Shown: positions 4,576 to 40,020, numbered from the stretch's first letter. The stretch is DNA of 40,050 nt from a virus (IMGVR_UViG_3300010167_000005:1-40050); one strand, 5' to 3'. The notes: generated by a model from the sequence alone, not told the origin. Numbers and translations are program-made.

Positions 4576-4812
4576 TTGAAGGCGATTGCGGAGATTGTGA
4601 CCATGATGTCTTCGAATGCCTACTTGAGGAAAGATGCTTCTATTGTTCAAAGGAGAGTGAAGGATGTGTCTGCAGCAGGCTGTGAACATTTGAACGTATT
4701 TATGAAATGGCAGAGGGATATCAAACGCTGGAAATGCGTTATGTGTGGCAAGGTGTTTACACCTGAGGAAACGGAGCAGTATATCATTGAAAGGAGCAGG
4801 CGATTAAAATGA
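4576..4812 (+). CDS. Small hypothetical protein with C-terminal CxxC
   Basis: ORF-track model. An alternative two-gene model exists: a Cys-rich 44-aa ORF at 4551-4685 plus a GTG-started short ORF ending at 4812. Confidence 0.4.
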   Translation: MKAIAEIVTMMSSNAYLRKDASIVQRRVKDVSAAGCEHLNVFMKWQRDIKRWKCVMCGKVFTPEETEQYIIERSRRLK

Positions 4813-9109: not shown

Positions 9110-11226
9110 TGTCTGGTAAGGAAGTTGGCGAGGAGATAATCACAGAGTTATTTAACCCTCGTCCGGACATTACGATCAAGCACATTTTGGCATCACGCTC
9201 AAATTATCTGGTTGAGAGTAACTTAACTCAACTGTTATCCATAGTCTTTCCATCGGATATGACTTATGATGTGTTTAACGCTGATGGCACAAAAAATGAG
9301 GCTGCTACACAAATTTTAACCAATATGGCTAAAAAACCATCGACTAACTTATGGTACTTCATGCAACAGACATATGACGATATCTTCACGTATGGAGCGT
9401 TGGTAGCAAATAAGTTCTACCAGCAAGATGAGGGTGTGTGGGTGTTGCACTTGAGGCGATTACCGCCTGAAACATTCAGCGAAACGCCGAGTGAGGTTAA
9501 AGGTACATCGTCCATCTTTATGCCCGGACTTATCTCAACATCGAAAGGTATACGTGCTTTCCAAACTTCGACCGATGATACCGGCAATACTCACACGGTT
9601 GAAATCCCAGAAGACAGTTTGCTAATCTTCACAGACCCCAGATATGCAAGTAAGGTAGGGGGCGAGAGTAAACTCAAGTCCATCGTTCCCTTGTTACAAA
9701 ACCTAAACGACGGGTACGTTATGTTTAAACGTGCATCGAGGCGTGCTGGAGACCCGAAGGTTATGGTCAAACGCCCGGCGGATGTGGCTAAAAAGTTAAC
9801 ACCTGAGGAAAGGAACGATCTTAAAAAGTTCTTATCTGACCAAACTGAGAACGGTGCAGTACTGTTACCCGATGGAATGGACGCTCAAGGGGTTCCTATA
9901 AACGCTAACAATATGTGCGAACGGTACTTGACTGTATGTATCCAGCAGATAAAGGACTTCTTTAACCCTACGAGTTGGTTATCAAGTACAGGTACGGCGT
10001 TATCGGAAAGTGGTAAAGCACGGTTGGAGTTAATAAAATTAGCCGTAGCAGGACAGCAGTCTATGGTGGAAGACCATATCGAAGGTGTGTTGAATGAGTG
10101 GCTGGAGATAAATGGTTGGACTGGCTGTACCGTGACAATAACGATCAATAACGCTAACGTGTCAAATGAAGCAGCGCAGGCAAAAATCGTAGAAACGTTG
10201 AGGAAGGAGAAGTTATGTTTTATCAACGAAGGGAGACAGATAATGGGCTTGCCTGCACTTGATGAAGAACAACTTAAGTTATTAGAAGAGGAATATGGCT
10301 CATCAAACGACACATTAGCATCACTACTCACATTCGGCCCTGAAGGGAGACGGCTTCATTCCAACCATGCTGGCATTTCCTCCTTCGTTAATGTAGGCGA
10401 GGAGCACGAACCTAACAGAGCCGAAGCCATTCTTACTAAAGAGTTGGTCAACGTCGGTCAGGAAGTGACAGATAGTATAGTGTCAACGCTAACGGACACG
10501 GGTGTTGACAGGCAGCGGATAGATACAAGTATCGGCATGATGGAGAGAAGGACGGTTGTTAGTCTATCTCAAAATGCTGGCAGGCAATATGCCATCGGAA
10601 GTACTGAAGCGTATACTCGCATGCAAATGGTTCCTGATGGGTTATCTATCATGCAGAGAACGCAGGCATTTACGGAAGATTACGTCAATTTAGCGATAAA
10701 AGAGGGCGTGACGATCATCGACGGCGAGAAGAATAATTGGATATCTCGCTTCCAGGAAGAGCAAAGGGTAGATATATACGATATCATAACGAAAGGGATG
10801 GAAGAAGGCAAGTACCCTGGAGTAAAAGAAGGTGTTAGAGGCGGGTATGCGCAAAACACGATAGGTTACGATCTGCAAGAGTACTTTAATGATAGAAGGT
10901 CACACACCACAACCGTAGCAAGGACGGAGAGTGGTAGAATAATGAATATGGGACACCTTGAGACGTATGCTGAGATGGGTGTTACCCGTGTCCGCGTGCT
11001 CGATGGTGACGGAGCAAACTCGTGCGACGTGTGCAACATGATAAACGGTCAGGAATGGCCGGTAGATTATGCTATGGACCATACCCTTGAGCATCCTAAT
11101 TGCGTTAGGGATTTTATACCGATAAAGCCGAGAGGCGGGTATGCTGTTAACAATATCCCAGTTAAATTATTTAAGGAGAGACAGTTATTACTTAAAATGC
11201 CGTATCAATTTGTGGTGGGAAGATGA
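9109..11226 (+). CDS. Portal protein fused to a Mu F / SPP1 gp7-like head-morphogenesis domain (705 aa)
   Basis: Positioned directly after terL. The C-terminal RTESGRIMNMGH...CDVCNMINGQEW...EHPNCVRDF matches the Phage_Mu_F signature. Confidence 0.8.
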   Translation: MSGKEVGEEIITELFNPRPDITIKHILASRSNYLVESNLTQLLSIVFPSDMTYDVFNADGTKNEAATQILTNMAKKPSTNLWYFMQQTYDDIFTYGALVANKFYQQDEGVWVLHLRRLPPETFSETPSEVKGTSSIFMPGLISTSKGIRAFQTSTDDTGNTHTVEIPEDSLLIFTDPRYASKVGGESKLKSIVPLLQNLNDGYVMFKRASRRAGDPKVMVKRPADVAKKLTPEERNDLKKFLSDQTENGAVLLPDGMDAQGVPINANNMCERYLTVCIQQIKDFFNPTSWLSSTGTALSESGKARLELIKLAVAGQQSMVEDHIEGVLNEWLEINGWTGCTVTITINNANVSNEAAQAKIVETLRKEKLCFINEGRQIMGLPALDEEQLKLLEEEYGSSNDTLASLLTFGPEGRRLHSNHAGISSFVNVGEEHEPNRAEAILTKELVNVGQEVTDSIVSTLTDTGVDRQRIDTSIGMMERRTVVSLSQNAGRQYAIGSTEAYTRMQMVPDGLSIMQRTQAFTEDYVNLAIKEGVTIIDGEKNNWISRFQEEQRVDIYDIITKGMEEGKYPGVKEGVRGGYAQNTIGYDLQEYFNDRRSHTTTVARTESGRIMNMGHLETYAEMGVTRVRVLDGDGANSCDVCNMINGQEWPVDYAMDHTLEHPNCVRDFIPIKPRGGYAVNNIPVKLFKERQLLLKMPYQFVVGR

Positions 11227-12236
11227 CAGAGAAAAAAGCAAAGACGTTTATCAATCTGATATCGGATGAGAAGGTTACATCTCACGACGCTGTCTTACAT
11301 CGCTTAAACACGCAATATCGATATGGCGATATGTATCTCATGATGAATTCTGATGCTTTTGAAAAGAGTATCGGCGAGTGGCTTAACGCTAAGTTAATAT
11401 TCGGGATAGGACACCCGGATATGGACACGGCCTATTTTGCTCCAGGGCTTGCCGCAGCCGTGGACGGGAGTGTTGAGGTAGGTAAGATCACTAACGCATG
11501 GATTAACCCTGCTGATAACAAACTCATGGCAAACTTCGAGTTTAGCGGCGATTACACTGCAGAGATTGAAAATCTCATCAAGGAAGGCAAACTCTCCTTG
11601 TCTTCCGGCTTCCACTCCATAGATAGTATCGACGAAGAAACAGGCATGGTACGATTTGAAGAGGTCGTACCCAATCACGTATTACTCTTCGTTGAGAATG
11701 AATGGAACAGACCACGCGACCCAGCGAGTGGTATTGTTAATATCCTGGGAGGTACGAATATGGCGACATTGGAAGAAATGGCTAAAACAAATGCCGAATC
11801 CAAAGTCAAGATCGACGAAATGACTGCCAAAGTCAGTACATTGGAAGCGGAAAAGGCAAAGATCAATTCTGAGCTCACCGCAAAGACGAATGACCTTGCG
11901 GCAGCCGAAGAGAAGATCAGGTCTTTGGAAGCGGATAACGAAAAGTTCAAGACCGATGCGCTGGAGATAGAGTGGAACGGGATAGTATCTACTCTGCCTG
12001 CGGCGATAGCGAAGGACGCAACAAAACTGGAAGAGGCTAAAAAGGAATTTATGGCTGACCCGCTTGCGTTCTACAGAAAACAGGCTGTGGCGGCAAAGAC
12101 GTCACTCCAGGAGATGGCTGCAAAGACCTCGAAAGCAGGTTCGACAGACAACTCCGCCGGAACAGAAGAAGGGACAGTATCGTATAAGGGTAAAACTTAT
12201 ACTGAAAGTGAGTTCCTCAAGATCATAGGTGGTTAA
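11223..12236 (+). CDS. Prohead protease (HK97/S78-like) with C-terminal coiled-coil scaffold region
   Basis: GIGHPD ... LSLSSGFHS ... VPNHVLLFVEN follows the HK97 protease pattern. This is followed by Ala/Glu/Lys-rich coiled coil (TLEAEKAKINSEL...). Confidence 0.6.
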   Translation: MTEKKAKTFINLISDEKVTSHDAVLHRLNTQYRYGDMYLMMNSDAFEKSIGEWLNAKLIFGIGHPDMDTAYFAPGLAAAVDGSVEVGKITNAWINPADNKLMANFEFSGDYTAEIENLIKEGKLSLSSGFHSIDSIDEETGMVRFEEVVPNHVLLFVENEWNRPRDPASGIVNILGGTNMATLEEMAKTNAESKVKIDEMTAKVSTLEAEKAKINSELTAKTNDLAAAEEKIRSLEADNEKFKTDALEIEWNGIVSTLPAAIAKDATKLEEAKKEFMADPLAFYRKQAVAAKTSLQEMAAKTSKAGSTDNSAGTEEGTVSYKGKTYTESEFLKIIGG

Positions 12237-12237
12237 A

Positions 12238-12627
12238 ATGACACTCGATAGAACAGGTGTGCCGGGAGAGGTGAAGTTTGACGGGTTGTATTACGCGTTG
12301 AAGTTTCCCTTAATGGCAAACATCACAGCAGGGCAGGTATGCATCGTTGCCGATACGGGAGGGTTGATGGTGGCTTCGGCGGCGTCGACAGGTAAACCGG
12401 TAGTTCCGCTACAGCACGGTGCATCAGGCGAGGAAGTAACAGGGATGTTGGAAGGCGTTGTCCTGCTCAAGTCCACGGCAGTTGCAAAGAAAGGAACGAA
12501 GTGCATATTCGGTGCGGCTGGTGCAGTATCTCCGAAAGCAGGTACGCCTACATTCGATCAGTTTGTTGGATACTACGCTGAGGACTGTACTGATATCACA
12601 ATACCTGTAGCAGTGAGGGTGGTCTGA
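12238..12627 (+). CDS. DUF2190-like small head protein (decoration/cement candidate)
   Basis: Gly/Ala-rich 129-aa ORF between the scaffold and major capsid genes. The ATG at 12238 follows AGGTGG. Confidence 0.5.
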   Translation: MTLDRTGVPGEVKFDGLYYALKFPLMANITAGQVCIVADTGGLMVASAASTGKPVVPLQHGASGEEVTGMLEGVVLLKSTAVAKKGTKCIFGAAGAVSPKAGTPTFDQFVGYYAEDCTDITIPVAVRVV

Positions 12628-13502
12628 TGACTCAGCCAGGTCAGGGTGGCGCAGGTGCCACGCAGGTAATCAGCCTTCCGCCGTTCACAAGAGCGCAGAT
12701 GTTGCAGATAAGGGCAGATATGTACGAAGCGATGGCGTTGAACACGTCGTTCGATGTCATATCTGACAAGAACAATATCAATTTCGAGTGGCCTACTCTC
12801 AGCGAGGGTGCGGTTCACACCGACGTTGGCGAGTTTGAAACTGTAAACATCGAGAACGCAAAGTTTGGCTTGCAGTCCTTCAAGATCAAGAAGGACGTCG
12901 GTCATGTGATGGTATCAGACGAGGCAGCGATGATGGGTGCTACAGCATCTCAGAACATCATGGAAAGGCAAAGGGCACAGTTGGGTCCGGCGTTTGCAAA
13001 GGGTGTTGAAAAGAAGATGCTCACGGCGATCAAAAAGATACCTCAACTGTACACCGCGACCGTCAATTGGGCAGTGAGTGCAAACAACCCTCTGCTTGAC
13101 CTCGGAGCGGCATCGCTGATGCTTGAGACAGGCAACACAGATTCAATGAATCTTATCATGAACCCGCTCGACGCAATGAAGTTGATGTCGAACGAGTTCA
13201 TACTCAAGTATGTTGCGAGCGAGATGTTCTCTACGAGAAGGGACAAGTTGGCAGAGTTCAACCTGATAAAGGACAAAAACAACCTCATACCGTCCGGTAA
13301 AGCATATCTTACTTCCACAAAAGGAGTAGGGTATTGGGTCGACGGCAGAGAGTTCCAGGAGCCGTATCGAGACATCCAGAAGGGCGGCGATGGACATAAG
13401 GTGACGTACTTCAACGGTGTATCGGGTCCGTTAGAGCTCGTCGGCAAAGGCGCCACGGCGAAGAACGCTGGTGTTGTTGAGATAACCCTTGTTACAACCT
13501 GA
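12627..13502 (+). CDS. Major capsid protein
   Basis: A 291-aa ORF in the canonical position after the protease/scaffold. Its start is coupled to the upstream stop (TGATG). Confidence 0.75.
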   Translation: MTQPGQGGAGATQVISLPPFTRAQMLQIRADMYEAMALNTSFDVISDKNNINFEWPTLSEGAVHTDVGEFETVNIENAKFGLQSFKIKKDVGHVMVSDEAAMMGATASQNIMERQRAQLGPAFAKGVEKKMLTAIKKIPQLYTATVNWAVSANNPLLDLGAASLMLETGNTDSMNLIMNPLDAMKLMSNEFILKYVASEMFSTRRDKLAEFNLIKDKNNLIPSGKAYLTSTKGVGYWVDGREFQEPYRDIQKGGDGHKVTYFNGVSGPLELVGKGATAKNAGVVEITLVTT

Positions 13503-13511
13503 GGGTAAATC

Positions 13512-13910
13512 ATGGCCGAACTGAACGCGTCGCTATTCGCATCCTTCACAGGGATAGAAGTAAACGACCGTTCCTCAAACTCTTTCACAATTTCTATTTT
13601 CAAATCATTATTTGCCGTAGCGGAAGGCATGCTCAATAAGATGCTATCAGGCACGGCTATTACAGAAGATCTTCACAATTACGCATTAGCGCTGATGATA
13701 GCGCACTTATGGACGATACGAACAACGGATAATACACTTAAGTCCGAGAGTATTGGTACGTATTCCTATTCACGAGATACCGATAAATCAACAAAATACA
13801 TGGCTCAGTTAGAGGAAATGATAGCATCGCTCGGTGCAAGTGATTCTGTGATGTTTGTATCAGTTGAGGACACGAAAGAAGGAGATGTTGACGGATTGTT
13901 AAGGGTGTGA
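13512..13910 (+). CDS. Head-tail connector (gp6-like) protein
   Basis: Size and position immediately after the capsid gene. Confidence 0.55.
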   Translation: MAELNASLFASFTGIEVNDRSSNSFTISIFKSLFAVAEGMLNKMLSGTAITEDLHNYALALMIAHLWTIRTTDNTLKSESIGTYSYSRDTDKSTKYMAQLEEMIASLGASDSVMFVSVEDTKEGDVDGLLRV

Positions 13911-13914
13911 TTTT

Positions 13915-14217
13915 ATGATTTCACACTTTTTAAATCAGAATTGTGTCATCTACAACCGCATAGGGTTTGACGAAGAAGGACGGTCAACCTATGGCGAGGG
14001 ACATTGTGTCGATTGTCGAATAGAGTCTTCGAAGCTCAACGTAACCTCAAGTGATGGCAACGACACAGCGTCCGGTATTCGTATGTATATATCTGCTGAT
14101 ATAAAAATCGGTCCGGACGATAAGATTAAGATCAAAGACCGTACACTCCACGTTAACACTGTTATAGAACAGGTCGATGGGCAGGGAAGGATAACGTACA
14201 AAGAGGTGCACATATGA
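13915..14217 (+). CDS. Head closure / head-tail adaptor protein
   Basis: A 100-aa ORF in the conserved connector gene order. Confidence 0.5.
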   Translation: MISHFLNQNCVIYNRIGFDEEGRSTYGEGHCVDCRIESSKLNVTSSDGNDTASGIRMYISADIKIGPDDKIKIKDRTLHVNTVIEQVDGQGRITYKEVHI

Positions 14218-14552
14218 AGGTCAACATCGAGATAAAAGGGATGGACGATCTATTATCTGCACTTGACGAAAAGAAGGCTATAACAGGTCAAGTTTTCAAT
14301 ATCGTGTCTGATGAGTTGATAGATGCAGTTTTAGTCAAAGGCGGAGTTGACGCACCTGTTAGGACAGGATATTTACGCCGGTCACGGTACGTTTACCCAC
14401 ACATAACAGCCAATAGTTTTACTGTTGAAGCAGGGTTTAGAGCAAGTTATGCTGAAATAGTTGATAGGAGACACGGCACAAAAGCAGGGTTCTTTACCGG
14501 CAACGTGGTCGAGGCGATACATAACATTAAACGGAGAGTTAAGGCGTTATGA
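14214..14552 (+). CDS. HK97 gp10-like tail-completion/neck protein
   Basis: APVRTGYLRRS matches the vPv.TG.Lr.S signature of the HK97 gp10 family. Confidence 0.6.
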   Translation: MKVNIEIKGMDDLLSALDEKKAITGQVFNIVSDELIDAVLVKGGVDAPVRTGYLRRSRYVYPHITANSFTVEAGFRASYAEIVDRRHGTKAGFFTGNVVEAIHNIKRRVKAL

Positions 14553-14935
14553 TAATGGAAAAATCATCTCCGGCAATGTTTGTTCAATCACTGATAAGCA
14601 AGGCAGGCATCACGTCAACGATAGGACAAACGCCGATAGAGAACGATGTTTTTGCCATAATAGATACACCATCGCCAATAGCATCAAACGTCGGTAACGC
14701 AAAATATTTCTCAGTCAAGATCAAAACGGATAAATACCAAGCAGGGTATAAAATGATGAAGGAATTGGAAGAGATGTTATTTCCCGTCCGCAATATAGAA
14801 TCAGTAGACGCCGGAACCTTTGCATCATTTTCAGCAATTCAAGAGCCACGTATCGGAGGGTACGAGGAAGGGGATAAAGGTAAGTATGTAATTATATACC
14901 AGGATTACATTACTTATAACACGAAACCGAGGTAA
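14549..14935 (+). CDS. Tail terminator / tail completion protein
   Basis: Position immediately upstream of the tail tube gene. Size is 128 aa. Confidence 0.5.
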   Translation: MIMEKSSPAMFVQSLISKAGITSTIGQTPIENDVFAIIDTPSPIASNVGNAKYFSVKIKTDKYQAGYKMMKELEEMLFPVRNIESVDAGTFASFSAIQEPRIGGYEEGDKGKYVIIYQDYITYNTKPR

Positions 14936-14940
14936 GAAAT

Positions 14941-15369
14941 ATGGCAGATAGTCTATCGTCGCAAGGAATGCAAATAACGATCAATACGATCGAAATAGAC
15001 GGAGTAACAACCGTTACGCCGCCGGGGATAAGCAAGGATGAGAATGATGTCACTGTCCACAGTTCGAAAGGTTACAAGGAAGTAGCCGAGGGACTTGCAG
15101 ACAGTGGAACAATAACGTTAAACGGCAACGTTTGGCCCGATGATGCAGGACAGATTGAGTTGAGGAGATGTTCCAAACCCAATACAGGGTTGCATAACTT
15201 CGTTATCCAAACTCCTAACTTACCCGGAATAGTTCGCTTAAGTTGGGCGTTCCGCGGGTTTGTGAAAGAATACACAAACGAAGGTGGCGAAGTGGGTGGG
15301 ATTGTTAAGTTTAGCGCAACAATCCGCATATCTGGCGAAGTGACCGAAACAGTAATACCGCCGGTGTGA
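14941..15369 (+). CDS. Major tail (tube) protein
   Basis: A 142-aa ORF resembling TP901-1-type major tail proteins. It lies upstream of the chaperone pair and tape measure. GAGGT Shine-Dalgarno site. Confidence 0.7.
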   Translation: MADSLSSQGMQITINTIEIDGVTTVTPPGISKDENDVTVHSSKGYKEVAEGLADSGTITLNGNVWPDDAGQIELRRCSKPNTGLHNFVIQTPNLPGIVRLSWAFRGFVKEYTNEGGEVGGIVKFSATIRISGEVTETVIPPV

Positions 15370-15372
15370 TAG

Positions 15373-15834
15373 ATGACCGCCATTAACGGGTTTGAATATC
15401 CGCAGGTAGACGGGTACACGATACGCATAAGCATGAAACTGTCTGATGAGCTCAAACGAAAGTTTCCAGCAAGGACGGTCATGGCTATGGTTCCTCCTAA
15501 AGACGTAATAGACAAAAACGTCGAGATAATAGAGTGGAACAAAGAAAACCCGGACGATATGAAAAAGTTAATCGTTGCCGATTCAACGTTGCAGGAAGTT
15601 CAGATGCCTGCAGGGGCTATTAACTTCGATGTTGCGTCTGAATGCTGTCTGGCGTATGCGATGATTGTCAACTCGTCGATTGAAGTTAAGGCAAACACGA
15701 TGCCAACAATTCAACCCGATGTAATGATGGAACTCATGGACGCAGAAGACCATCCCGCTCTCGCTGAAAAAGTGGCGATGATGTTAGGGATCACAAAAGG
15801 CAAAAAAGTTGATGAGACCGACGAAAAAAACTGA
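15373..15834 (+). CDS. Tail assembly chaperone (G-like)
   Basis: Position between the tube and tape measure genes. Ends just after an A7 slippery run. Confidence 0.7.
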   Translation: MTAINGFEYPQVDGYTIRISMKLSDELKRKFPARTVMAMVPPKDVIDKNVEIIEWNKENPDDMKKLIVADSTLQEVQMPAGAINFDVASECCLAYAMIVNSSIEVKANTMPTIQPDVMMELMDAEDHPALAEKVAMMLGITKGKKVDETDEKN

Positions 15835-16175
15835 CACCGCTCACAGACACTGAATTGTGGGCCTATTGTCGAGTAACGCTGGGAATGACGCAGGAGGAAT
15901 ACGATAATTCGACGATGCAGGAGATAGACGCGTTAATCGTGCGAAGATATAACAATGATGTTGAGGACGTGAAACGTCAGGACATATTTACCGCTGCGAT
16001 TAACGCGACGCTAATTAACTGTCATCGTGGAAAAGATACGCCGTTGGTAGAGGTGAAAAACATGCTACTTTATCCTAAACTACATGATATTAACAATGTT
16101 AAAGGGATATCCATAAAAGATGTGGCACAGTTATCGGCGGCGTTGACAGCAGTATCGAGGCGAGTGAATGACTGA
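15373..16175 (+). CDS. Tail assembly chaperone frameshift fusion (GT-like; join at 15831)
   Basis: ORF 15855-16175 has no ATG start (the track uses TTG). It lies in the -1 frame relative to 15373-15834. This is the conserved G/GT arrangement upstream of tape measure genes. Confidence 0.65.
15825..15831 (+). promoter_or_regulatory. -1 programmed ribosomal frameshift slippery heptamer A_AAA_AAC
   Basis: In zero frame the sequence reads gaa aaa aac tga. The -1 frame is open from 15822 through the downstream ORF that ends at 16175. Confidence 0.7.
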
Positions 16176-31384: not shown

Positions 31385-31738
31385 ATGGACTTCCCTAAGC
31401 AGGAGAACGACAAACCACTTAAACTCATTCCTTATGAGTCAGATATACGCAAAAGATGCGACAATCTGATGAAAAAAAGGGGTGCGTATATCTGTCCTGT
31501 CAATCAGGACGAAAGAGGTTCGTCGGGCGCTCCGGACAGAGTGTACTGCTACAAGGGAATGTTTATCGCCGTTGAGTATAAGAGAAGCGCGAGCGAAAAG
31601 GCATCAAGACTGCAACTGCACCATAAGGACATGATAAGATCAGCGGGTGGCAAATGGTATCTGATATGGAGTAGCGAGCAGTTAGAATTGGAAATGCACA
31701 TATTAGAAGGGACGATCAATGCCGAAAAGAAAAAATGA
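31385..31738 (+). CDS. VRR-NUC / Holliday-junction-resolvase-like PD-(D/E)XK nuclease
   Basis: GAPDRVYCYKGMFIAVEYK gives the D...E.K catalytic pattern. The ATG at 31385 lies just after the upstream stop. Confidence 0.65.
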   Translation: MDFPKQENDKPLKLIPYESDIRKRCDNLMKKRGAYICPVNQDERGSSGAPDRVYCYKGMFIAVEYKRSASEKASRLQLHHKDMIRSAGGKWYLIWSSEQLELEMHILEGTINAEKKK

Positions 31739-33704
31739 CTTTACACAATTCAACGAATGCTTTAACGCATCCGATTCACGTTGCTACGTGATTTGCGATG
31801 CGAATAAGCAACGAAGGAATAGTGAAGTGTACAGTTATCAAGAAGCAAAGGAGTACCTTGAGAAAGGTGCTCTCATAGGGTTCATTTTACCGAAAAACAT
31901 TATCGTTATGGACTTTGATAAAACTGTTTCACAATACATCTTAAGTCTAACGAAATGGGATACAAACCCTAACGATATAACCCATTCCACAACGCCGAAC
32001 GGAATGCACGTTTGGCTTAAATCTGAAGAGGAATATGCTAGCGATATATTGACAATGTGCGGTATATCTGCACGTGTCTATCGTGAAGGGAAATATGTCA
32101 TTCTTCCTTATGGGTGTGATGATAGAGAATTTGTTCAGATGGACGCGTTGAAAGGGTATGATTTCTACCCGATGCTTAAACCGTTGGAATATACTTCGCG
32201 TCCTATATTTAACATACCTATTCCTACTGATGCCTATATAGACACGCTGAAAAGATATGTTCAGATATTAGAAAATGAAGGCTACGATCAGATAGGCATC
32301 GGTGTAGCGTTGACATGGATTAATGATAAGTTAGCTGAAGAGTCAATTCCTCGTGATGTGCTAATTAACAGTGTTATCGGCGATGCCAGAGATATCTCAT
32401 TCATGGACGGAAATAAATTCGACCATGTCAAAATGGTGGATTTTTTCATAGCCAGGTATCCGATGGTTGTCCGCAATGATAGAGTATTTGTCTATTTCGA
32501 CGGCGTGTACAAAGAAGCGGAGAAGTTTATCGAGAATATGACAGTGTACCATCATCCGCCGATTAAGATGGCACAGCGTAAAGAGGTTATCGAAACGTTG
32601 CGGATTAAGGTTAGATCAAAAGAAAAGAAGATGGCGATGAGTAAAAATGTTGTCAACTTTAAGAACGGTACCGTATCGGTTGAAAAATACGGTCAACTTA
32701 ACCCTCATCTACCTGAAACGGTTCTATTCCAGCAGATATCTGCCAATTTTGATTCACAATGGCAGTCTAAAGAGATGCTGGATGTAGACAGATATTTTAA
32801 AGATGTTACGCAAGGCGATGAGCAGTTAGAGAAATTCCTCTATCAATTAATCGGGTACTGCTTAATACCTAACCTGGTATGGGATAAGGCGTTTATCTTA
32901 TGGGGACCCACAGCGGATAACGGTAAGTCCACATTCCTCAAGGTTCTAACAGCAGTAGTAGGTAAAGATAATGTGTCATCGGTATCGTTAAAGCAGATAG
33001 TTGACGATAAGTTCTCACTGGTTAAGACGAATCACAAACTTGTCAATTTGCAAGGAGAGACGTCAACAGCATATTTAGAAGATATCGCTATTTTTAAACA
33101 AATTGTTACCGGAGACGATATTTTAGTGCAGGAGAAAAATCAGCCAGCGTTCATGATGACACCGAGTTGCAAACATATCTTTGCAACAAACGAGTTCCCG
33201 AAGATAAGGGATAAATCAAACGGATTTTATCGACGTGTTTTTGCTGTTGAGTTTAAGGCGAAATTTAGCGAGGAACAGAAGGCTAAATTCAGCATTGATA
33301 ATATCACGCACCAGCAGGCGCTGGACTATATCGCCAGTCGTGCCATATATGAGTATAGCGAAGTTGTGAGGACAAGGACCTGGGCCAAATCCGATGCTTC
33401 TGATATGCTCGTAAATCAGATCAAAATAACCTCATCAAGTGTTGCAGAGTTTTGGTCGAAAGAGATATTAGAAGGGGAGCACATAAACCGTCCGGAATTA
33501 TACACTCGCTATCAAGCCTTTTGCGATGCTGAGGCGGTGAAACATGTGACTGGAAAGAAATCTTTTTATAATGAGTTAAGATTATTTTATCCAGACGAGT
33601 ATAAAGAGTACGGTTCCAACGGGCAGATTTACATAGAAAAAGTTAAGAAGGAAGAAAAGAAACAAGAGGAAGAGAAAAATGAGGTTCTATACAAGCTCTT
33701 TTGA
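31719..33704 (+). CDS. Bifunctional primase-polymerase (prim-pol) + D5/P4-type SF3 helicase
   Basis: The N-terminal part has IVMDFDK (DxD) and TPNGMHVW (sGxH). The helicase part has Walker A WGPTADNGKST and a P4/D5-type C-terminal region. Confidence 0.85.
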   Translation: MPKRKNDFTQFNECFNASDSRCYVICDANKQRRNSEVYSYQEAKEYLEKGALIGFILPKNIIVMDFDKTVSQYILSLTKWDTNPNDITHSTTPNGMHVWLKSEEEYASDILTMCGISARVYREGKYVILPYGCDDREFVQMDALKGYDFYPMLKPLEYTSRPIFNIPIPTDAYIDTLKRYVQILENEGYDQIGIGVALTWINDKLAEESIPRDVLINSVIGDARDISFMDGNKFDHVKMVDFFIARYPMVVRNDRVFVYFDGVYKEAEKFIENMTVYHHPPIKMAQRKEVIETLRIKVRSKEKKMAMSKNVVNFKNGTVSVEKYGQLNPHLPETVLFQQISANFDSQWQSKEMLDVDRYFKDVTQGDEQLEKFLYQLIGYCLIPNLVWDKAFILWGPTADNGKSTFLKVLTAVVGKDNVSSVSLKQIVDDKFSLVKTNHKLVNLQGETSTAYLEDIAIFKQIVTGDDILVQEKNQPAFMMTPSCKHIFATNEFPKIRDKSNGFYRRVFAVEFKAKFSEEQKAKFSIDNITHQQALDYIASRAIYEYSEVVRTRTWAKSDASDMLVNQIKITSSSVAEFWSKEILEGEHINRPELYTRYQAFCDAEAVKHVTGKKSFYNELRLFYPDEYKEYGSNGQIYIEKVKKEEKKQEEEKNEVLYKLF

Positions 33705-34608
33705 CGCAATGACATGCCATGTCCACGGCGTCGTATTATCGCCGGTCCACTTAGAGAGTAATTTTGATGCAAGTAATTACAAAGTATTCATCGACAGCGG
33801 AGGGTTTACCGACGTTCATGCTCACAAAAGATTGACGTATCGAGAGGCGTTGGACAGACAGATAAAAATAGCAGGAAGATTAAACGCTACTCCGGAGATG
33901 CTGGCAGGGTACGACCTTATCTCTCCGCTATGCTTCCCATCGTCAACTCGCAAATTTAAATCGCCAGAAAACGATCATGCGATAGAAACGACAATCAAGG
34001 CAGCGGAGTGGTTTGATAAACATCGTGATGAGATGCTCGGTGCAAGTCCAATGTTCATTCTCCAGGGTGCATGGCCGAGTGATTTCATGCACTGTTTGGA
34101 ACACATCGTCCCTCTACTTGAAGAAGGAGATACTATCGGCTTCGGGTCGTCGGCGTCAAACAACGACAAAATAAAGCAGAGACTAAGAGAAATAACTGCT
34201 GGTACTTGCGCTAAACTGCAAGGCACAGCCTGCAATAAAGTTCATTATTTAGGGCTATCGCCAATCAACGATCTCTGCCAGTTTGACACATATTGCAGAC
34301 AGAGAGGGATTGACCCCTCATATGACACTTCATCGTATATCAGAAGGTGCGCTTTCGGAGACATCAGTGCACCGCCAGACTTCAACGAAACGGTTGATGC
34401 CTTGTCTAAGTTAGACAAGCAGAGAAGATGGACGTATTTTAATATATCCGTCGGTTCAGTGCAGGCGTTTTGGGACCATTGGAATTTTTATTTCGATGAC
34501 TTGAGTTTGGACGAATATAACTTTGAAGAATTTAAAACCAAGAATGACATCAAGTATGACGAGTTCATGGCTGGACAAAACGCTTTAGACAAATGGGTGA
34601 AAAAATGA
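33679..34608 (+). CDS. dpdA: DpdA-like DNA/tRNA-guanine transglycosylase family protein
   Basis: FIDSGGF matches the TGT catalytic DSGGF motif. HYLGLS ... YDTSSY matches the second TGT/DpdA motif block. Size is DpdA-like (309 aa). An alternative start is ATG 33709. Confidence 0.7.
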   Translation: MRFYTSSFDAMTCHVHGVVLSPVHLESNFDASNYKVFIDSGGFTDVHAHKRLTYREALDRQIKIAGRLNATPEMLAGYDLISPLCFPSSTRKFKSPENDHAIETTIKAAEWFDKHRDEMLGASPMFILQGAWPSDFMHCLEHIVPLLEEGDTIGFGSSASNNDKIKQRLREITAGTCAKLQGTACNKVHYLGLSPINDLCQFDTYCRQRGIDPSYDTSSYIRRCAFGDISAPPDFNETVDALSKLDKQRRWTYFNISVGSVQAFWDHWNFYFDDLSLDEYNFEEFKTKNDIKYDEFMAGQNALDKWVKK

Positions 34609-35339
34609 TAGATTTAGGTGTAGAGAAAAAATTAGGTTCGGACACCGTGAAGCACATCTATATTGGGTTGATGGTTATGGCTTTGCTCATTTCCAACATC
34701 ATCGCAATGAGGATGATTCACGTGGGTGAACTGTTTGGATTGGAGATATATGTCACGGGTGCGGTATTCACATACTTCATCTGCTTTTTGATGACAGATA
34801 TTCTCTCAGAGAAGTTTGGAAAGAAGGTTGCAAAGGATGCCATTAAGGCGGGTGTTGTAGCACAGTTGATAGCATTTGCGCTGATAATGATCGTCGTATT
34901 CGTCGTTCCGGTTGGACCGACTGACTGGGACGTTGATATGCTAGCGGCGTATAAGATGATATTCACTGTCAACGGATTCATAATAGCAGGAAGCATAACT
35001 GCTTTCTACATATCGCAGAATCTGGACGTGAAGATATTCCATGTGTTAAGGCATAAGTTCCGAGACAAGAAATGGGTCAGGTCATCGTCGACAATACTGT
35101 CACAGTTAGTTGACACGCTGATAATGACGTTCATAGCGTTCGTCATCCCGATGTGGCTCGGACTTGAAGGGTCGTTACCGTTCATCATATTGCTCGGCAT
35201 GCTGGCCGGAGAGTATATGCTCAAGGTTGCTTTGGCGGCGTTGGACACTCCGATATTCTACCTGCTAACAGGCGGTAGAAGAACGCAGGAAAACTTCGAC
35301 GATGCGAACAAACAGATAGAGGAGACAAAAAATGGCTAA
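34605..35339 (+). CDS. yhhQ: YhhQ/Vut-family queuosine-precursor (preQ0) transporter
   Basis: FTYFICFLMTDILSEKFGKKVAK and ISQNLDVKIFHVLRHKFRDKKWVRSSSTILSQLVDTLIMTFIAF align closely with E. coli YhhQ blocks. The protein is multi-pass. ATGA-coupled start (ATG 34593 is the alternative). Confidence 0.85.
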   Translation: MIDLGVEKKLGSDTVKHIYIGLMVMALLISNIIAMRMIHVGELFGLEIYVTGAVFTYFICFLMTDILSEKFGKKVAKDAIKAGVVAQLIAFALIMIVVFVVPVGPTDWDVDMLAAYKMIFTVNGFIIAGSITAFYISQNLDVKIFHVLRHKFRDKKWVRSSSTILSQLVDTLIMTFIAFVIPMWLGLEGSLPFIILLGMLAGEYMLKVALAALDTPIFYLLTGGRRTQENFDDANKQIEETKNG

Positions 35340-35724
35340 AAGTGAAGAAAGAACAGAGGAGAAAGTGACAAAGATCGGCGACGTAATGTACGCCGTTTCT
35401 TCTGAGCGTGTCACGTGTCCGTTCTGCAAGGGTACAGAGAAGTTGGACCGAACGATATTCATACCGGCGGTGTTGCAAGGCAACGTCAAATGTGTATGCA
35501 ATGGCGGGTGGTTCTTTGCTCCGTATCGTGTCGTTGAAGGGAAAGTCGCAGAGATAATCCTGCGTGAAACGGCAGAAGGAGTGCAGAAGAAATACGTCAT
35601 GGACTTCGGGCAAAGAAACGAGGAAAGAGATGAACGTCTGTATTCAAACAAAAAGGACGCCGAAGGATTGGCAGCGGAACTGAACGATCAGTATGACAAA
35701 CTCGAGGTGGTCCTTCGTGCGTAA
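35332..35724 (+). CDS. Hypothetical zinc-binding protein (130 aa)
   Basis: CPFC ... CVC Cys pairs. Confidence 0.55.
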   Translation: MAKSEERTEEKVTKIGDVMYAVSSERVTCPFCKGTEKLDRTIFIPAVLQGNVKCVCNGGWFFAPYRVVEGKVAEIILRETAEGVQKKYVMDFGQRNEERDERLYSNKKDAEGLAAELNDQYDKLEVVLRA

Positions 35725-35956
35725 AAGCATAGACGTTCGTTCGCTCAGCCTGACAAACGAGGAAAAAGATGACCTTCTCTCCCTTATCTATTTTCACAGA
35801 GCAGGTCCGGGTAGAGCGATAGTGCTCATACTTAACGATAGGGGCAAAACGTGTGAACAGATAGCGGATATCGTCGGCGTTGAGCGTTCAACGGTCTATG
35901 AATCTCGCAGAATAGGACGTAAGAGGAGAAGTGAAACAGATGAAGACAGCATTTGA
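35717..35956 (+). CDS. HTH DNA-binding protein (sigma-70 region-4 / LuxR-like)
   Basis: LTNEEKDDLLSLIY...GKTCEQIADIVGVERSTVYESRR. The GTG at 35717 lies 6 nt after GAGGTGG. The track ATG at 35693 overlaps the previous gene. Confidence 0.6.
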   Translation: MRKSIDVRSLSLTNEEKDDLLSLIYFHRAGPGRAIVLILNDRGKTCEQIADIVGVERSTVYESRRIGRKRRSETDEDSI

Positions 35957-36260
35957 GGACGTCATGGCGGTCAAACTGTCAGGCGAGCAGTTGAAGAGAG
36001 CGATGTTCGTTCAACAATTTACCAAATATGATATTGTTGACAGCATCGTTATTGCAACGCTCTACTGCGATTTCGGCGATGAAGTGCATCTCAAGACGTT
36101 GTCGAAAAGAATCAATATGCATGGCGAAGATGTTCGAGCAAAACTGAACGTTCTTCGGTCAAGGCTGGATAATCAGCAGACACTTGACGAAGGCGTGACG
36201 TATGGACAGCAGTTGTGCAAGGCGATGAATTGCAAGCCGTTTGACTTCAAGGATGTGTGA
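35931..36260 (+). CDS. Hypothetical protein (109 aa)
   Basis: ORF in the operon. Confidence 0.5.
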   Translation: MKQMKTAFEDVMAVKLSGEQLKRAMFVQQFTKYDIVDSIVIATLYCDFGDEVHLKTLSKRINMHGEDVRAKLNVLRSRLDNQQTLDEGVTYGQQLCKAMNCKPFDFKDV

Positions 36261-37063
36261 CCATGGCGGATACGACAGTATTGATAACCGGAAAGAACAA
36301 AATACTCAGAGAAGCGTTCACAATCGGCAGTATCGTCAGAACATCGCTCGACGCGATAAGAATGACGATAGAGGAAGATAAGATAGAACTGTTAGGACTG
36401 GATGCGGCGAAGGCGATCGTTATCGAATATGTCCTTGAGTCAGATACAGCAAAAGGATTGAAGATAACGTCAACAATCGGCGATTCTCCAGGCAAAGACC
36501 CTAACGGCGAAGTTATCCCTGGTAATGTGATGCAGATAGACCCGAGAGAGATACTTGAAGGTTTAAAGAAGGGCGATGCCAGCGATGATGCAAGCATATC
36601 TTTCGGCAAGGAGAACACGGTCGTCAAGACAGGAAGGATAACGAGGAAGTACAGAACAAAATCTGCAATTCTCATTCCGTCAGCGTGGAAAGTGCCAAAC
36701 TTACCGATGACAGCGGCGGCAGTGATGAAGAAGGAACTGTTCCAGTCCTTATTCCGTCCGTTGGACGATCTCGAGCAGATACGCGTCAAGTTCTCGCCGG
36801 AAGGGATAGATGTACGAGCGGAAGAAGAGCACATCATTAAAGGAGAGACGTATGTCAAGGTGGCAGAATGTAGCAAATTTGTTTCAAAAGAAACGTTTGA
36901 CGTTCTGTTCGGAACGGAGTACTTCGTCGGAATAGCGAATTATATCCCTTCAGATATCGTTGACGTGACCTTGAAGATGGCTGCTAACATGCCTGCGTAT
37001 GTGTTTTTCGGTTCTGTTCGCTGTATATTGGCACCGAGAATCGATGATCAGCCAATGGAGTGA
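36257..37063 (+). CDS. pcn: PCNA-type DNA sliding clamp
   Basis: The size is PCNA-like (268 aa). The N-terminal pattern ...IVRTSLDAIRMTIEEDKIELLGLDAAKAIVIEYVL parallels archaeal PCNA (LIDEAAFKVTEDGISMRAMDPSRVVLIDL). The C-terminal ...FGSVRCILAPRIDD parallels ...GRLTFLLAPRVEE. Confidence 0.75.
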   Translation: MTMADTTVLITGKNKILREAFTIGSIVRTSLDAIRMTIEEDKIELLGLDAAKAIVIEYVLESDTAKGLKITSTIGDSPGKDPNGEVIPGNVMQIDPREILEGLKKGDASDDASISFGKENTVVKTGRITRKYRTKSAILIPSAWKVPNLPMTAAAVMKKELFQSLFRPLDDLEQIRVKFSPEGIDVRAEEEHIIKGETYVKVAECSKFVSKETFDVLFGTEYFVGIANYIPSDIVDVTLKMAANMPAYVFFGSVRCILAPRIDDQPME

Positions 37064-37092
37064 TAAACATTTTACCATTTTTCTTTTTCATA

Positions 37093-37165
37093 TTAAAGTT
37101 AGAATAGTAATGTTTATATACAACTTAAGTATTACTACTATTACAACTATGGGAAGTGGTTAAAA
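37093..37165 (+). promoter_or_regulatory. Promoter-leader cassette copy P3
   Basis: TTAAAGTTAGAATAGTAATGTTTATATA lies at 37093-37120, preceded by oligo-T tracts. The leader is caactatgggaagtggttaaaaATG. Confidence 0.65.
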
Positions 37166-37408
37166 ATGGACGGAAAATATTGGTTGAAGAAAATAGAGGA
37201 ACTGGACGTAAACAAAATATGCTATGTCAACGTGTTGAGAGACACGCTAGAAGTCAGAGCGTGCGCAAACAAGACATATCTCATCAGAATACAGGGTCCA
37301 GACGCAGTATTTACGATGGCGTGCGATAAGATAGAGGCAACAAAGAACGAGTTATCGTTTATCTTTGCTGGAACCATAATAGCAAGATTCAAAGAAAAGG
37401 TGGAATAA
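37166..37408 (+). CDS. Hypothetical protein (80 aa), first gene behind P3
   Basis: ORF directly behind the cassette. Confidence 0.6.
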   Translation: MDGKYWLKKIEELDVNKICYVNVLRDTLEVRACANKTYLIRIQGPDAVFTMACDKIEATKNELSFIFAGTIIARFKEKVE

Positions 37409-37588
37409 ATGCCTTCCTGCTACTATTGCAACCGGAGAGCAGAGCCAGAAAACAGCATTCTTAGACCAAATGGCAACGTTTGGCACTTTTGCGATGAGTG
37501 CTGGGGTGAAAGAAAAAGCGAAGAAGCGCACGCAAAGATCGTAGACGGTATGACGCTAACTGAAATGGCAAACGCAGGAGTGTTGTGA
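37409..37588 (+). CDS. Zinc-ribbon miniprotein (59 aa)
   Basis: Manual translation gives MPSCYYCNRRAEP...WHFCDECWGERK... The ATG abuts the upstream stop, and the stop lies 1 nt before the next ATG. Confidence 0.55.
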   Translation: MPSCYYCNRRAEPENSILRPNGNVWHFCDECWGERKSEEAHAKIVDGMTLTEMANAGVL

Positions 37589-37589
37589 G

Positions 37590-38240
37590 ATGTCTGAAAA
37601 GAGCGGCATGATGAGAGTGAACGGCATGATAAATGAAGTCGCTGATGCGATGATCGTGAAAATGTTCAAAGATTTTCCCGTCGGCAATGTTGGACTAACA
37701 TTTCACAGGCACAAGAAGGCTTATGGGTGTTTCTACGTTGATAAGAACTGGAAGATAGGCGAAGATGGCTTTCATGAGATAAACATCAGCGAGCACGCAA
37801 TCAGAGCAGGAAAGACACAGATGTTCTGCACCATTGCTCATGAGTTGGTTCACGCAGCCAATACGCAAATGGGGATAAAGGATACAGACAAAACCCTTCG
37901 CCGTCACAACAAGAAGTTTAAGGCAGGATTGGAGAAGGTTGGCATGAAAGCGTTCGACACTGGCGGTCCAGGAGGGTGGGACGACGTAGTCGAATGGTAT
38001 CCTGTCTTTGAGGAGATCGTTGCTGAGTTGAGCGATGATGCCAAATATGTCCTGGAAAATGTGGACGTATTGTTGCAGTTTAAGAGCGGCGGAAGTAACA
38101 CGCAAAACTTATCCGTTTTTATCTGTCCGAATTGCGGGCAGAAGGCAAGGGCAAAGCAGGGAGCAAAACTGATATGCGGGAACGACTGCTGCCTGCCTGA
38201 CGATACGGAAGGCATGGTAACAATGGAGTTGGTAGGGTGA
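37590..38240 (+). CDS. SprT-like zinc metalloprotease with C-terminal zinc ribbon
   Basis: HExxH motif within TIAHELVHAAN, followed by RRHNKKFK. Both are SprT-like. The C-terminal Cys pattern is CPNCGQ...CGNDCC. Confidence 0.7.
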   Translation: MSEKSGMMRVNGMINEVADAMIVKMFKDFPVGNVGLTFHRHKKAYGCFYVDKNWKIGEDGFHEINISEHAIRAGKTQMFCTIAHELVHAANTQMGIKDTDKTLRRHNKKFKAGLEKVGMKAFDTGGPGGWDDVVEWYPVFEEIVAELSDDAKYVLENVDVLLQFKSGGSNTQNLSVFICPNCGQKARAKQGAKLICGNDCCLPDDTEGMVTMELVG

Positions 38241-38662
38241 CGATACAAACCTTTGCGCTTGTGCGCGCTACGTGTGCGTGCTGTGGGATAAAACATGATG
38301 TTTTATTACAGCACGGCGGCAAGATGCAACACGATCAGATGCAAGGTTGCATAGAGTTGAAAAAACGTGGATGGCACTGCTATACAAGGAAGGTGTTCAC
38401 TTATAACGAGCCAGGCGGCGAAGAGTATAATGACAAGAAGATCAAAAAGGTTACATGGGTATGTAAAACGTGCAAATCGAAAGCGGATATCATAATGAAC
38501 ACAAAATTCATGTGCAAGTTTGACCCAAGGGACAATGAGTGTGTGATACAGTATTGCAAAGGTCAAGATGCTTGCTATAAATGTGCACATTTCAACCCTT
38601 TTACATTAAAATGTGAAGATGTGAGAGATACAATACCGTATATTGTGAGTGTGGTAGAATGA
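38237..38662 (+). CDS. Cys-rich hypothetical protein (141 aa)
   Basis: Multiple CxxC pairs (CACC, CKTC, CYKC). GTGA-coupled start. Confidence 0.55.
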   Translation: MTIQTFALVRATCACCGIKHDVLLQHGGKMQHDQMQGCIELKKRGWHCYTRKVFTYNEPGGEEYNDKKIKKVTWVCKTCKSKADIIMNTKFMCKFDPRDNECVIQYCKGQDACYKCAHFNPFTLKCEDVRDTIPYIVSVVE

Positions 38663-38943
38663 AACGCCACGCAATATATCGTCCGGACGGCGGAGTTGAC
38701 TATTATGTCAACTCTGACCTTTCGTGCAAAGAGTTTGGATGCAAAACAACCTCGCAGGGTCACGGTAAAAACTGCTGCACAATACTCACTGTCAGTGACA
38801 TAGAACAGTGGGTGAGGGAGAAGAAGGAGGAGATAGAAACTCACAGAATATATCCGCCATGGTATGGTTATTATATACAGACTGGAGAAGTGAAAATCCT
38901 CGACGAAATCCTCGACATCATCGAGAAGAACAAGGAGGGATAA
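38659..38943 (+). CDS. Hypothetical protein (94 aa)
   Basis: ATGA-coupled ORF. Confidence 0.55.
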   Translation: MKRHAIYRPDGGVDYYVNSDLSCKEFGCKTTSQGHGKNCCTILTVSDIEQWVREKKEEIETHRIYPPWYGYYIQTGEVKILDEILDIIEKNKEG

Positions 38944-38944
38944 C

Positions 38945-39553
38945 ATGAGAGATGACGTGATAAAATATACATGGGAACAATGTGAAGAGATGATAGAGCA
39001 GATAATGGAGCGCTTGTTATCTCAAGGTAAAGAGATATCAGGTGTGTACGGCATACCCAGGAGTGGTATAATCCCTGCAGTGCTTATCGCTTATCAATAT
39101 GATATGCCTTTATTGGCAGGTCCTCACAAAAACTGCATCATCATAGATGGAGACTGCTGGAGTGGCAAGCAGTTATCTCACTATGCACGATCTGACGAGC
39201 AAGAATGGGAATATCATATCTGTGCCCTCATCGACCGGAGTGAGGCAAACACTGGTAAGCCATCGTTGGTGCAATATGCTGGCATAACTCTCAACGAAGT
39301 AATACCGTTGATAGTTTTTCCGTGGAATGCAAAAGTATCTCCATATGCAGAGCCGTGGCTGTTCTTTACATCGCCTGAGGAACATATTGCTAAGGGCGAT
39401 TGTAAAAAATGTGTCTGGGATGTGGATATATGCACTGATGAAGAGCAATGCTACGCTGATTATATCAAGTTGAGAAGAGATTGTCCTCTTTGCCACGGGA
39501 AAAGCAACCACGAATCGTGTCCAAACTGCAAAACTCTATCAGTGAAGAGGTAA
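38945..39553 (+). CDS. Gpt-like type I phosphoribosyltransferase domain fused to a Cys-rich zinc-ribbon tail
   Basis: VIKYTWEQCEEMIEQIMERLL...GVYGIPRSGIIPAVLIAYQY parallels E. coli Gpt (YIVTWDMLQIHARKLASRL...IIAVSRGGLVPGALLAREL). CIIIDGDCWSGKQL lies at the PRPP-loop position. IVFPWN parallels IEQPWD. The tail reads CKKC...C...CPLC...CPNC. Confidence 0.6.
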   Translation: MRDDVIKYTWEQCEEMIEQIMERLLSQGKEISGVYGIPRSGIIPAVLIAYQYDMPLLAGPHKNCIIIDGDCWSGKQLSHYARSDEQEWEYHICALIDRSEANTGKPSLVQYAGITLNEVIPLIVFPWNAKVSPYAEPWLFFTSPEEHIAKGDCKKCVWDVDICTDEEQCYADYIKLRRDCPLCHGKSNHESCPNCKTLSVKR

Positions 39554-39554
39554 T

Positions 39555-40020
39555 ATGACTAACTTAAGTGTGCATTTTTCATCCGATAGCGTTGAGCGGG
39601 CAACTCCGCAAGATATCTTTGACAAGTTGAATGAAGAGTTCGACTTTCAATTGGACGTTTGCGCTACCGATACAAATGCTAAGTGCGATATGTATTACAC
39701 AAAAGCAGAGAACGGATTGGAACAAGACTGGAGCGGTTATCGTTGCTGGATGAATCCTCCTTATGGACGTGAGATCGGCAAATGGGGTCAAAAAGGCAGC
39801 AGATGCCTTTGCTGATAACACACAGAAAGGGTTGTGTGTTTGCCTTGTGCCTTGCAGAACAGATACGCGCTGGTGGCAGGATGATGCTATGAGATGCACG
39901 GAGATCAGGCTGATAAAGGGACGATTAAGGTTTAATGATAAAGACGGCGCTCCATTTCCTTCTGCTTTACTGATATTTGGCACAAAAAAGATGCCGATCA
40001 TAAGAACGTATGAGGTATGA
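39555..40020 (+). pseudogene. dam: Phage-type Dam N6-adenine DNA methyltransferase, split by a 1-nt frameshift
   Basis: ORF 39555-39815 carries ATPQDIF...FDFQLDVCA...NPPYG. ORF 39763-40020 in the +1 frame carries the rest (VKKAADAF...LVPCRTDTRWW...GRLRF). Removing one G from GGGG at 39784-39787 restores ...GKWVKKAADAF... Confidence 0.8.

Follow-up and report, generated by a model that had tools for sequence, protein, structure and literature searches.

In the virus stretch IMGVR_UViG_3300010167_000005 (hereafter the window, 40,050 nt, a complete tailed-virus genome of 39.9-kb) we found two overlapping open reading frames (ORFs) on the + strand, a predicted DpdA-like guanine transglycosylase gene (33679..34608) and a gene for a membrane transporter of the YhhQ/Vut_1 family (34593..35339). 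The overlapping pair is probably a cassette for salvage-type 7-deazaguanine (dPreQ0) modification of DNA. The salvage reading is well supported computationally; that the target is DNA and not tRNA, and that the substrate is preQ0, we infer from the evidence given below. As shown by modelling, the product of the first gene is a very divergent predicted TIM barrel of the tRNA-guanine transglycosylase (TGT)/DpdA superfamily with the catalytic aspartates in place.

The enzyme gene codes for 309 aa, and its assignment is based on the ORF, its relatives, the fold and the motif register. The start codon at 33679 is preceded by a Shine-Dalgarno-like GAGGAAGAG (33668..33676, + strand, read from the sequence) and lies within the 3′ end of the primase-helicase gene, with an overlap of 26 nt. 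As the N-terminus MRFY... is kept in the relatives, 33679 should be the true start and the 299-aa call from JGI is too short. The protein carries the motifs KVFIDSGGFTDV (residues 35-46), KVHYLGLS (187-194) and PSYDTSSY (213-220). The search against PHROG resulted in a single weak match, to the queuine tRNA-ribosyltransferase family phrog_887 (E 0.0019). An exhaustive phmmer search recovered 64 relatives with a best E of 1.7e-24, and a profile search recovered about 240; these lack a Pfam domain, and the only name they bear in any source is 'hypothetical protein'. The TGT domain PF01702 gave weak matches in just two of 43 relatives (best 4.6e-4), and the enzyme itself remained below the gathering score. 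A word-indexed protein search with the enzyme returned only the query, tblastn of the enzyme and of its relative P0003 against 50,697 phage records gave no match, and scans of IMG/VR with the enzyme and with the primase-helicase gave no close relative.

Across the 43 aligned members 13 columns are invariant, including D39-S40, Y78-D79, Q129-G130, G156, H189 and G192, and D216 is nearly invariant. All 13 are kept in the enzyme, as are the three aspartates D39, D79 and D216. We regard as putative catalytic residues D39 (in DSGGF, general acid/base), F43, D79 (base recognition), Q129-G130, H189 and D216 (in YDTSS, nucleophile). The AlphaFold (AF2) model calculated from the family alignment (pLDDT 81, pTM 0.81) is an alternating beta/alpha barrel, in which one beta strand after another carries conserved residues at its C-terminal end. 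Foldseek against the PDB ranked bacterial DpdA (bDpdA, 7ui4) first (E 2.8e-8), and ranks two to six were taken by five TGT structures, among them 2ash, 6h42, 3bll and 7ovo, down to an E of 4.4e-7 (TMq 0.46-0.59 for ranks 1-6). Other TIM barrels begin at an E of 6.7e-5, which is about 1000-fold worse than DpdA/TGT. The search of BFVD yielded 32 matches at E <= 0.001, of which the best-ranked named ones are phage proteins called 'queuine tRNA-ribosyltransferase' or DpdA; Vibrio phage nt-1 R9TGF0 (E 2.1e-8) and a protein of mycobacteriophage Bella96 are among the matches.

The motif register agrees with this fold assignment. In hhalign alignments DSGGF, YD, QG, HYLG and YDTSS of the enzyme stand opposite DNGAG, PLD, PQG, HFLG and STDS of DpdA3 from phi19:2 (gp042), opposite HGFG...CDSSS of 9g DpdA1, and opposite YLMGVG...MFDCV of the E. 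coli TGT, where D216 aligns with D264. The alignments of the N-terminal half are of low probability, therefore the equivalence of D79 rests on register and spacing. The positions correspond to D95/F99, D130, H181 and D256 of bDpdA, and D95 and D256 of that protein are essential by mutagenesis (PMC10164549). The preliminary description of this DNA, made from the sequence alone, had reported a TGT-type gene with two motif blocks at 33679-34608, and both the ORF and the motifs were found as claimed, with the DpdA/TGT fold and the catalytic aspartates in addition. In profile comparisons of the kind it had proposed as a check, hhalign gave DpdA1 a probability of 88%, over the C-terminal half, and neither PF01702 nor the DpdA model of PADLOC matched.

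The second gene encodes a predicted protein of 248 aa, or 244 aa if translation starts from the ATG at 34605, and belongs to the YhhQ/Vut_1 family (COG1738). It matched PF02592 (Vut_1) at 8.9e-35 with 120.7 bits (cut-off 27.2) over profile positions 1-151 of 152, and TIGR00697 'queuosine precursor transporter' at 4.2e-33 with 114.8 bits (cut-off 50.95). The cut-off of the E. coli-type equivalog NF008406 was not reached by the window YhhQ (36.7 bits vs 252). Kyte-Doolittle profiles averaged over 19 residues show hydrophobic, transmembrane-like segments at approximately residues 19-45, 47-72, 82-114, 122-140 and 166-217. We recovered 104 homologues, at most about 40% identical, which are annotated as queuosine precursor transporter where the source names them; the best named matches come from a mixture of Bacillaceae, Halobacteriales and Methanotrichaceae (31-37% identity). 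The nearest relative on a long contig (37% identity) belongs to a temperate phage and stands directly after QueC and a radical-SAM gene, so that this branch of YhhQ is tied to 7-deazaguanine genes elsewhere too. We considered a 318-aa protein encoded upstream of the closest YhhQ relative (L031) as a further member of the enzyme family, and rejected it because of its radical-SAM CxxxCxxC motif. From its sequence, the transporter is predicted to import preQ0 or a related 7-deazaguanine base.

The two ORFs are coupled by an overlap, GACAAATGGGTGAAAAAATGATAG (34593..34608, + strand). Translation from the ATG at 34593 gives a 16-nt overlap with the enzyme gene, and with the alternative in-frame ATG at 34605 the start and the TGA stop (34606-34608) merge into ATGA, behind a Shine-Dalgarno-like GGTGA. 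The next ORF (35332-35724) in turn overlaps the YhhQ gene by 8 nt, and the enzyme gene, the YhhQ gene and the following gene form one tightly packed translational unit.

We searched the window for genes that would supply or further process the base. None of the 63 + strand ORFs of at least 70 aa contained a Pfam domain of FolE (GTP_cyclohydroI), QueD (PTPS), QueE/radical-SAM, QueC, QueF or DpdC type, and tblastn of phage FolE, QueD, QueE and QueC against the window gave no match. Neither a ParB/DndB-like (DpdB) gene nor any other dpd gene was recovered in the Pfam scans of the window ORFs. The coupled YhhQ/Vut homologue and the missing FolE, QueD, QueE and QueC had both been part of the preliminary description, and these searches bear them out.

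The gene neighbourhoods of the relatives link one viral clade of the family to 7-deazaguanine genes. We collected 95 loci of the family gene from IMG/VR, GTDB genomes, JGI metagenomes and other assemblies, which correspond to 56 protein clusters at 90% identity. In a virus of 152-kb (L011/L098) the order of genes is QueD, QueE-like radical SAM, QueC (Pfam 5.9e-77), DUF6884, a 73-aa ORF, the family gene and Mom. DUF6884 stands directly upstream of the family gene in nine of the 56 clusters; it is the domain of DpdC (PMC11888242), which converts preQ0-DNA to DNA with 7-amido-7-deazaguanine (ADG-DNA; PMC10164549), and a DUF6884 protein from the relatives' loci matched DpdC of PADLOC at 1.6e-6. 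A short Vut_1 protein (171-173 aa) is encoded directly downstream of the family gene, at -4 to +12 nt, in eight clusters, one of them represented by a locus on a Paenibacillus chromosome that may be a prophage, and all Vut_1 matches across the 95 loci adjoin the family gene. Altogether Vut_1 occurs in nine of the 56 clusters. The window YhhQ is full-length and belongs to another Vut_1 lineage, with 25% identity and an E of 5e-4 to the short proteins. As the lineages are distinct, enzyme and transporter were brought together on two or more occasions, and this speaks for a functional link. In a second phage clade the family gene is found among modification genes, with DNA methyltransferases and a weak, below-threshold Mom-family match (L018). 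The salvage-type reading, as first proposed for the window, thus gains from relatives in other viruses whose neighbours are DpdC-like genes, QueD-QueE-QueC and, in the same downstream position, a separate Vut_1 lineage.

Two further observations were made at these loci. The stand-alone 142-aa DUF6884 protein (L007 9568-9996, with equivalents in L008-L012 and L028) matched the PADLOC candidate system PDC-M57A at 1.5e-41, far above its match to bacterial DpdC (1.6e-6, N-terminal region only). On a phage contig of about 115-kb that belongs with the second clade (L017, 8001-10646), the family gene, a QueE-like radical-SAM gene, an acetyltransferase gene and a DUF6610 (DpdA4-type) gene stand in a row beside ThyX, thus this cluster holds two different TGT-like genes.

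The largest clade of the family is cellular (23 of the 56 clusters). Here the family gene adjoins a gene for a UvrD/GajB-like helicase of about 780 aa and/or one for a PD-(D/E)XK nuclease of 250-394 aa (L013-L016, L025, L027, L029, L035, L046, L051-L055, L060, L063, L065, L076, L082 and L088). The hosts include Methanosarcina mazei, Methanoplasma, Thermoplasmata and other archaeal metagenome-assembled genomes. These copies are located in defence islands with restriction-modification, pAgo and Dnd-associated genes nearby, and Que, DpdC and Vut genes are absent beside them. In PADLOC the DpdA-like component is not matched by any system, and the conserved triad of family gene, helicase and nuclease may be an uncharacterised archaeal Dpd-like system for modification/restriction or repair.

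Several results weigh against a preQ0-inserting DNA enzyme fed by its own importer. The enzyme ORF had no match in Pfam (E <= 0.1), NCBIfam, PADLOC or the PDB sequences, whether searched by phmmer or with the family profile. At three positions that hardly vary in the family it carries a deviating residue (A42G, Y136F and G157S), and the CxCxxC(...H) zinc site is absent from it and from all 43 aligned relatives. In the neighbour-joining tree the window enzyme stands as a singleton on a long branch, apart from all three clades, including the one with DpdC, Que and Vut genes. Its slightly closest relatives are the cellular copies linked to UvrD and PD-(D/E)XK rather than those linked to 7-deazaguanine genes, the highest identity being 27%, to a Methanosarcina copy. 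Given the singleton position, the link to 7-deazaguanine rests on the YhhQ neighbour, the active-site residues and the analogy with the viral clade, and not on clade membership. On the side of the transporter, the substrates of the YhhQ family vary, from preQ0 and preQ1 in E. coli to queuine in Chlamydia, thus homology does not settle which base is imported. Moreover, deletion of yhhQ from Escherichia phage CAjan left the modification unchanged.

Part of these results would also fit a DNA base-exchange or glycosylase enzyme of other role or substrate, which we consider unlikely. Such an enzyme could insert another imported base, e.g. preQ1, queuine, 7-carboxy-7-deazaguanine (CDG) or another purine analogue, or it could remove or replace host-type modified guanines in repair or counter-defence, in a manner connected with the cellular triad of UvrD and PD-(D/E)XK. 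Its highest identities are to cellular copies which stand with UvrD and PD-(D/E)XK genes in defence islands lacking Que, DpdC and Vut, the gene string of the window itself includes a PD-(D/E)XK nuclease and an SNF2 helicase, and specificity within the YhhQ family differs among organisms. DpdA3 is also thought to insert bases besides preQ0 (PMC10516641). However, the direct neighbour is a queuosine-precursor transporter of the TIGR00697 class, QueCDE and DpdC, which act on preQ0, accompany other branches of the family, and the active-site aspartates for recognition of guanine/7-deazaguanine are kept.

That the protein is instead a tRNA-guanine transglycosylase, remodelling host tRNA in the queuosine or archaeosine manner with the imported precursor and tuning translation without acting on DNA, appears quite improbable. 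The fold and the catalytic residues are common to tRNA TGTs, the closest PHROG family is named after the tRNA enzyme, and YhhQ serves tRNA queuosine salvage in bacteria. On the other hand, the protein is only 309 aa long, without the zinc subdomain of TGT and bDpdA and with no extra domain by Pfam, its closest match in structure is to DpdA, which acts on DNA, and the genes beside those of its relatives encode proteins specific to DNA (DpdC-like proteins, Mom and DNA methyltransferases). A tRNA gene search of the window found none. Virus-encoded TGT homologues studied so far are all DNA enzymes (PMC10516641).

A decaying or non-functional moron, with the enzyme an inactive remnant and the YhhQ adjacency meaningless, would agree with the extreme divergence (long branch), the three substitutions and the lack of close relatives in IMG/VR or cultured phages, but it is hardly credible given that both ORFs are intact and tightly packed behind Shine-Dalgarno-like motifs, that the invariant columns and the aspartates are kept in a confident model, that an independent assembly from an ENA sample contains the 40-kb genome region in identical form, and that unrelated viruses have the genes in this order as well.

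We therefore return to the salvage cassette and compare it with described systems. The concept of salvage is already published, both for phages with DpdA only, which were suggested to use host-made or imported preQ0, and for yhhQ genes of phages (PMC6884629, PMC7544227, PMC8651126). Salmonella phage 7-11, Mycobacterium phage Orion and halovirus HRTV-29 have DpdA and no preQ0 synthesis genes, and the DNA of phage 7-11 is modified with DpdA alone, using precursor made by the host (PMC6884629, PMC8651126). These viruses resemble the window in having a DpdA-type transglycosylase without preQ0 synthesis genes. However, their DpdA subfamilies are detectable by BLAST or Pfam and none has been described with a transporter, whereas the window enzyme escapes tblastn and is coupled to YhhQ. 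In phage CAjan the cluster is folE-queD-queE-queC-yhhQ-dpdA, and yhhQ is present also in the haloviruses HCTV-1 and HCTV-16 (PMC7544227, PMC10484667, PMC8651126). These viruses share with the window a YhhQ encoded within a dpdA-containing DNA-modification cluster; there it stands beside the complete de novo pathway, whereas in the window it is the only gene for precursor supply and overlaps the transglycosylase gene.

The bacterial Dpd system (DpdA/DpdB/DpdC of Salmonella Montevideo, structure 7ui4) provides the best structural match, with the same three aspartates and a proposed double-displacement mechanism, and its DpdC (DUF6884) is the partner of viral members of the enzyme's own family. 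About 9% of dpd islands carry YhhQ (PMC10164549, PMC11888242). The window differs in lacking the DpdB ATPase, the zinc site CXCX2CX22H, the DpdA-specific insertions (309 vs 413 aa) and restriction genes, and PADLOC DpdA matched neither the window enzyme nor four relatives tested. The structural zinc site is conserved in TGT and bDpdA (PMC10164549); we found CxCxxC in the E. coli TGT (C302-C307) and not in 9g DpdA1 or phi19:2 DpdA3. DpdA1 (9g), DpdA3 (Cellulophaga phiST group) and DpdA4/DUF6610 (HVTV-1) are, like the window enzyme, short zinc-less TGT-like TIM barrels beside replication genes, and DpdA1 and DpdA3 have the motif register in common with it. They differ in hhalign, where the probability for DpdA1 is confined to the C-terminal half and that for DpdA3 is 28%. 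Membership in DpdA4 was rejected, as the alignment to the DUF6610 protein reached 0.2%; DpdA2 was compared by fold only (R9TGF0). With only remote profile similarity to DpdA1, DpdA3 and DpdA4 the family looks like a separate branch, and, judged by these comparisons, it does not belong at the sequence level to DpdA1, DpdA3, DpdA4 or bDpdA. What appears new is the distinct DpdA-like family and the Vut_1 transporter as its recurrent, immediately downstream partner, here the sole gene for precursor supply.

Under the salvage reading, YhhQ would insert in the host membrane during infection and import preQ0 or a close 7-deazaguanine base, adding to the supply of the host. The DpdA-like enzyme would then swap guanines in the replicated viral dsDNA for the imported base by double displacement. 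As in bacterial DpdA and TGT, the nucleophile D216 would be linked covalently to the deoxyribose in the intermediate, and D39 would serve as general acid/base. As DpdC, QueF and ArcS are all missing from the genome, dPreQ0 would be the final product. The modification, together with the C5 and N6 DNA methyltransferases of the genome, would protect the DNA from host restriction.

The pair lies at the end of a replication/recombination string composed of an SNF2 helicase, a PD-(D/E)XK nuclease, an endonuclease and a D5/P4-type primase-helicase (31719..33704, + strand; TIGR01613 1.1e-48, DUF5906/D5_N/Pox_D5, phrog_864 8.2e-77). The last is a context gene outside the module, and its position agrees with the preliminary description, in which the pair was placed in the replication operon directly after it. 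GC skew is positive along the whole window and all convincing genes are on the + strand. Pfam scans of the genome recovered head genes (terminase, Mu-type portal and major head protein) and genes of DNA metabolism (SNF2 helicase, PD-(D/E)XK nuclease, VRR-NUC-like endonuclease and SprT-like protein), as well as three methyltransferase genes: a C5 DNA methyltransferase, a split Dam-type and an FkbM-type.

The FkbM-type SAM methyltransferase is encoded at 4809-5555 (Pfam Methyltransf_21/RrnaAD-like; phrog_8156 3.3e-16). Two ORFs that lie in different frames, 39555-39815 and 39763-40020, together encode the split N6-adenine methyltransferase of Dam type (Pfam Dam 1.9e-24). The window begins and ends with a direct terminal repeat of 123 bp, its first 123 bases being identical to the last 123, and through this repeat the stop of the second Dam ORF (40018-40020, equal to 91-93) and the ATG of the C5 methyltransferase gene (90-770) merge into ATGA. 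As genes cross the contig ends, from the split Dam to the C5 methyltransferase ATG, the genome is circularly permuted or circular.

Downstream of the cassette, many small ORFs occupy 35332-38943, and several encode small cysteine-rich (CxxC) proteins without annotation. The matches of the ORF at 35332-35724 to KMP11, Lar and TMEM106 were under the Pfam cut-offs and were taken as noise. An ORF of 268 aa in the replication region (36257-37063) had no family match; it takes the position of the PCNA gene in Caudoviricetes sp. vir524, and similarity to PCNA was not found. The ORF at 38945-39553 (202 aa) contains a phosphoribosyltransferase-like motif, GIPRSG...IIIDGDCWSGKQL, and has a weak match to phrog_8995 'phosphoribosyl transferase' (E 2.4e-4). 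This protein might recycle the released guanine or activate the imported base. A phosphoribosyltransferase is encoded also by the DpdA3 phage phi19:2.

Regarding the host, the situation was less clear. Terminase and primase share about 25-31% identity with proteins of many different bacterial phages. The major head protein had a sole match in the 50,697 phage records, to vir524 (BK063669, L034), which is assigned to Methanomicrobiales. Seven head-module genes in the window (6952-13910) are syntenic with vir524 (10140-19230) at 22-46% identity, namely those for the small and large terminase, portal, head-morphogenesis domain, a 337-aa protein, major head protein and adaptor. The ENA assembly series that yielded contigs identical or related to the window also contains the Methanosarcina-like contigs. 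The virus had been described at the outset as probably archaeal. In favour of this stands the head-module synteny with the one Methanomicrobiales virus; the similarity is weak, however, and the terminase and primase resemble those of bacterial phages. A methanogen (archaeal) host is plausible from these comparisons, though weakly supported.

More tentatively, and with the balance somewhat against it, the enzyme and its approximately 240 relatives may make up a fifth DpdA-like family with two ways of life. Its viral members would practise importer-driven salvage of environmental 7-deazaguanine by a DpdC-like/DpdA-like/Vut_1 cassette to hypermodify their DNA, in this case in a probable methanogen virus, and its cellular members would form a minimal Dpd-like modification/restriction system with UvrD and PD-(D/E)XK in defence islands of archaea.

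Modification of DNA with 7-deazaguanine is one of the major ways in which phages counter restriction, and DpdA is taken as the signature gene for it. As the models of Pfam, NCBIfam, PADLOC and PHROG miss this DpdA-like family, surveys of modified viral genomes likely undercount. The cellular branch linked to UvrD and PD-(D/E)XK may point to an unexplored archaeal system of defence or repair. For the viruses, the cassette suggests that some may bring their own importer, neither synthesising the base nor relying only on the tRNA pathway of the host, and if this is true, the protection of their DNA would be tied to the environmental availability of preQ0-type bases.

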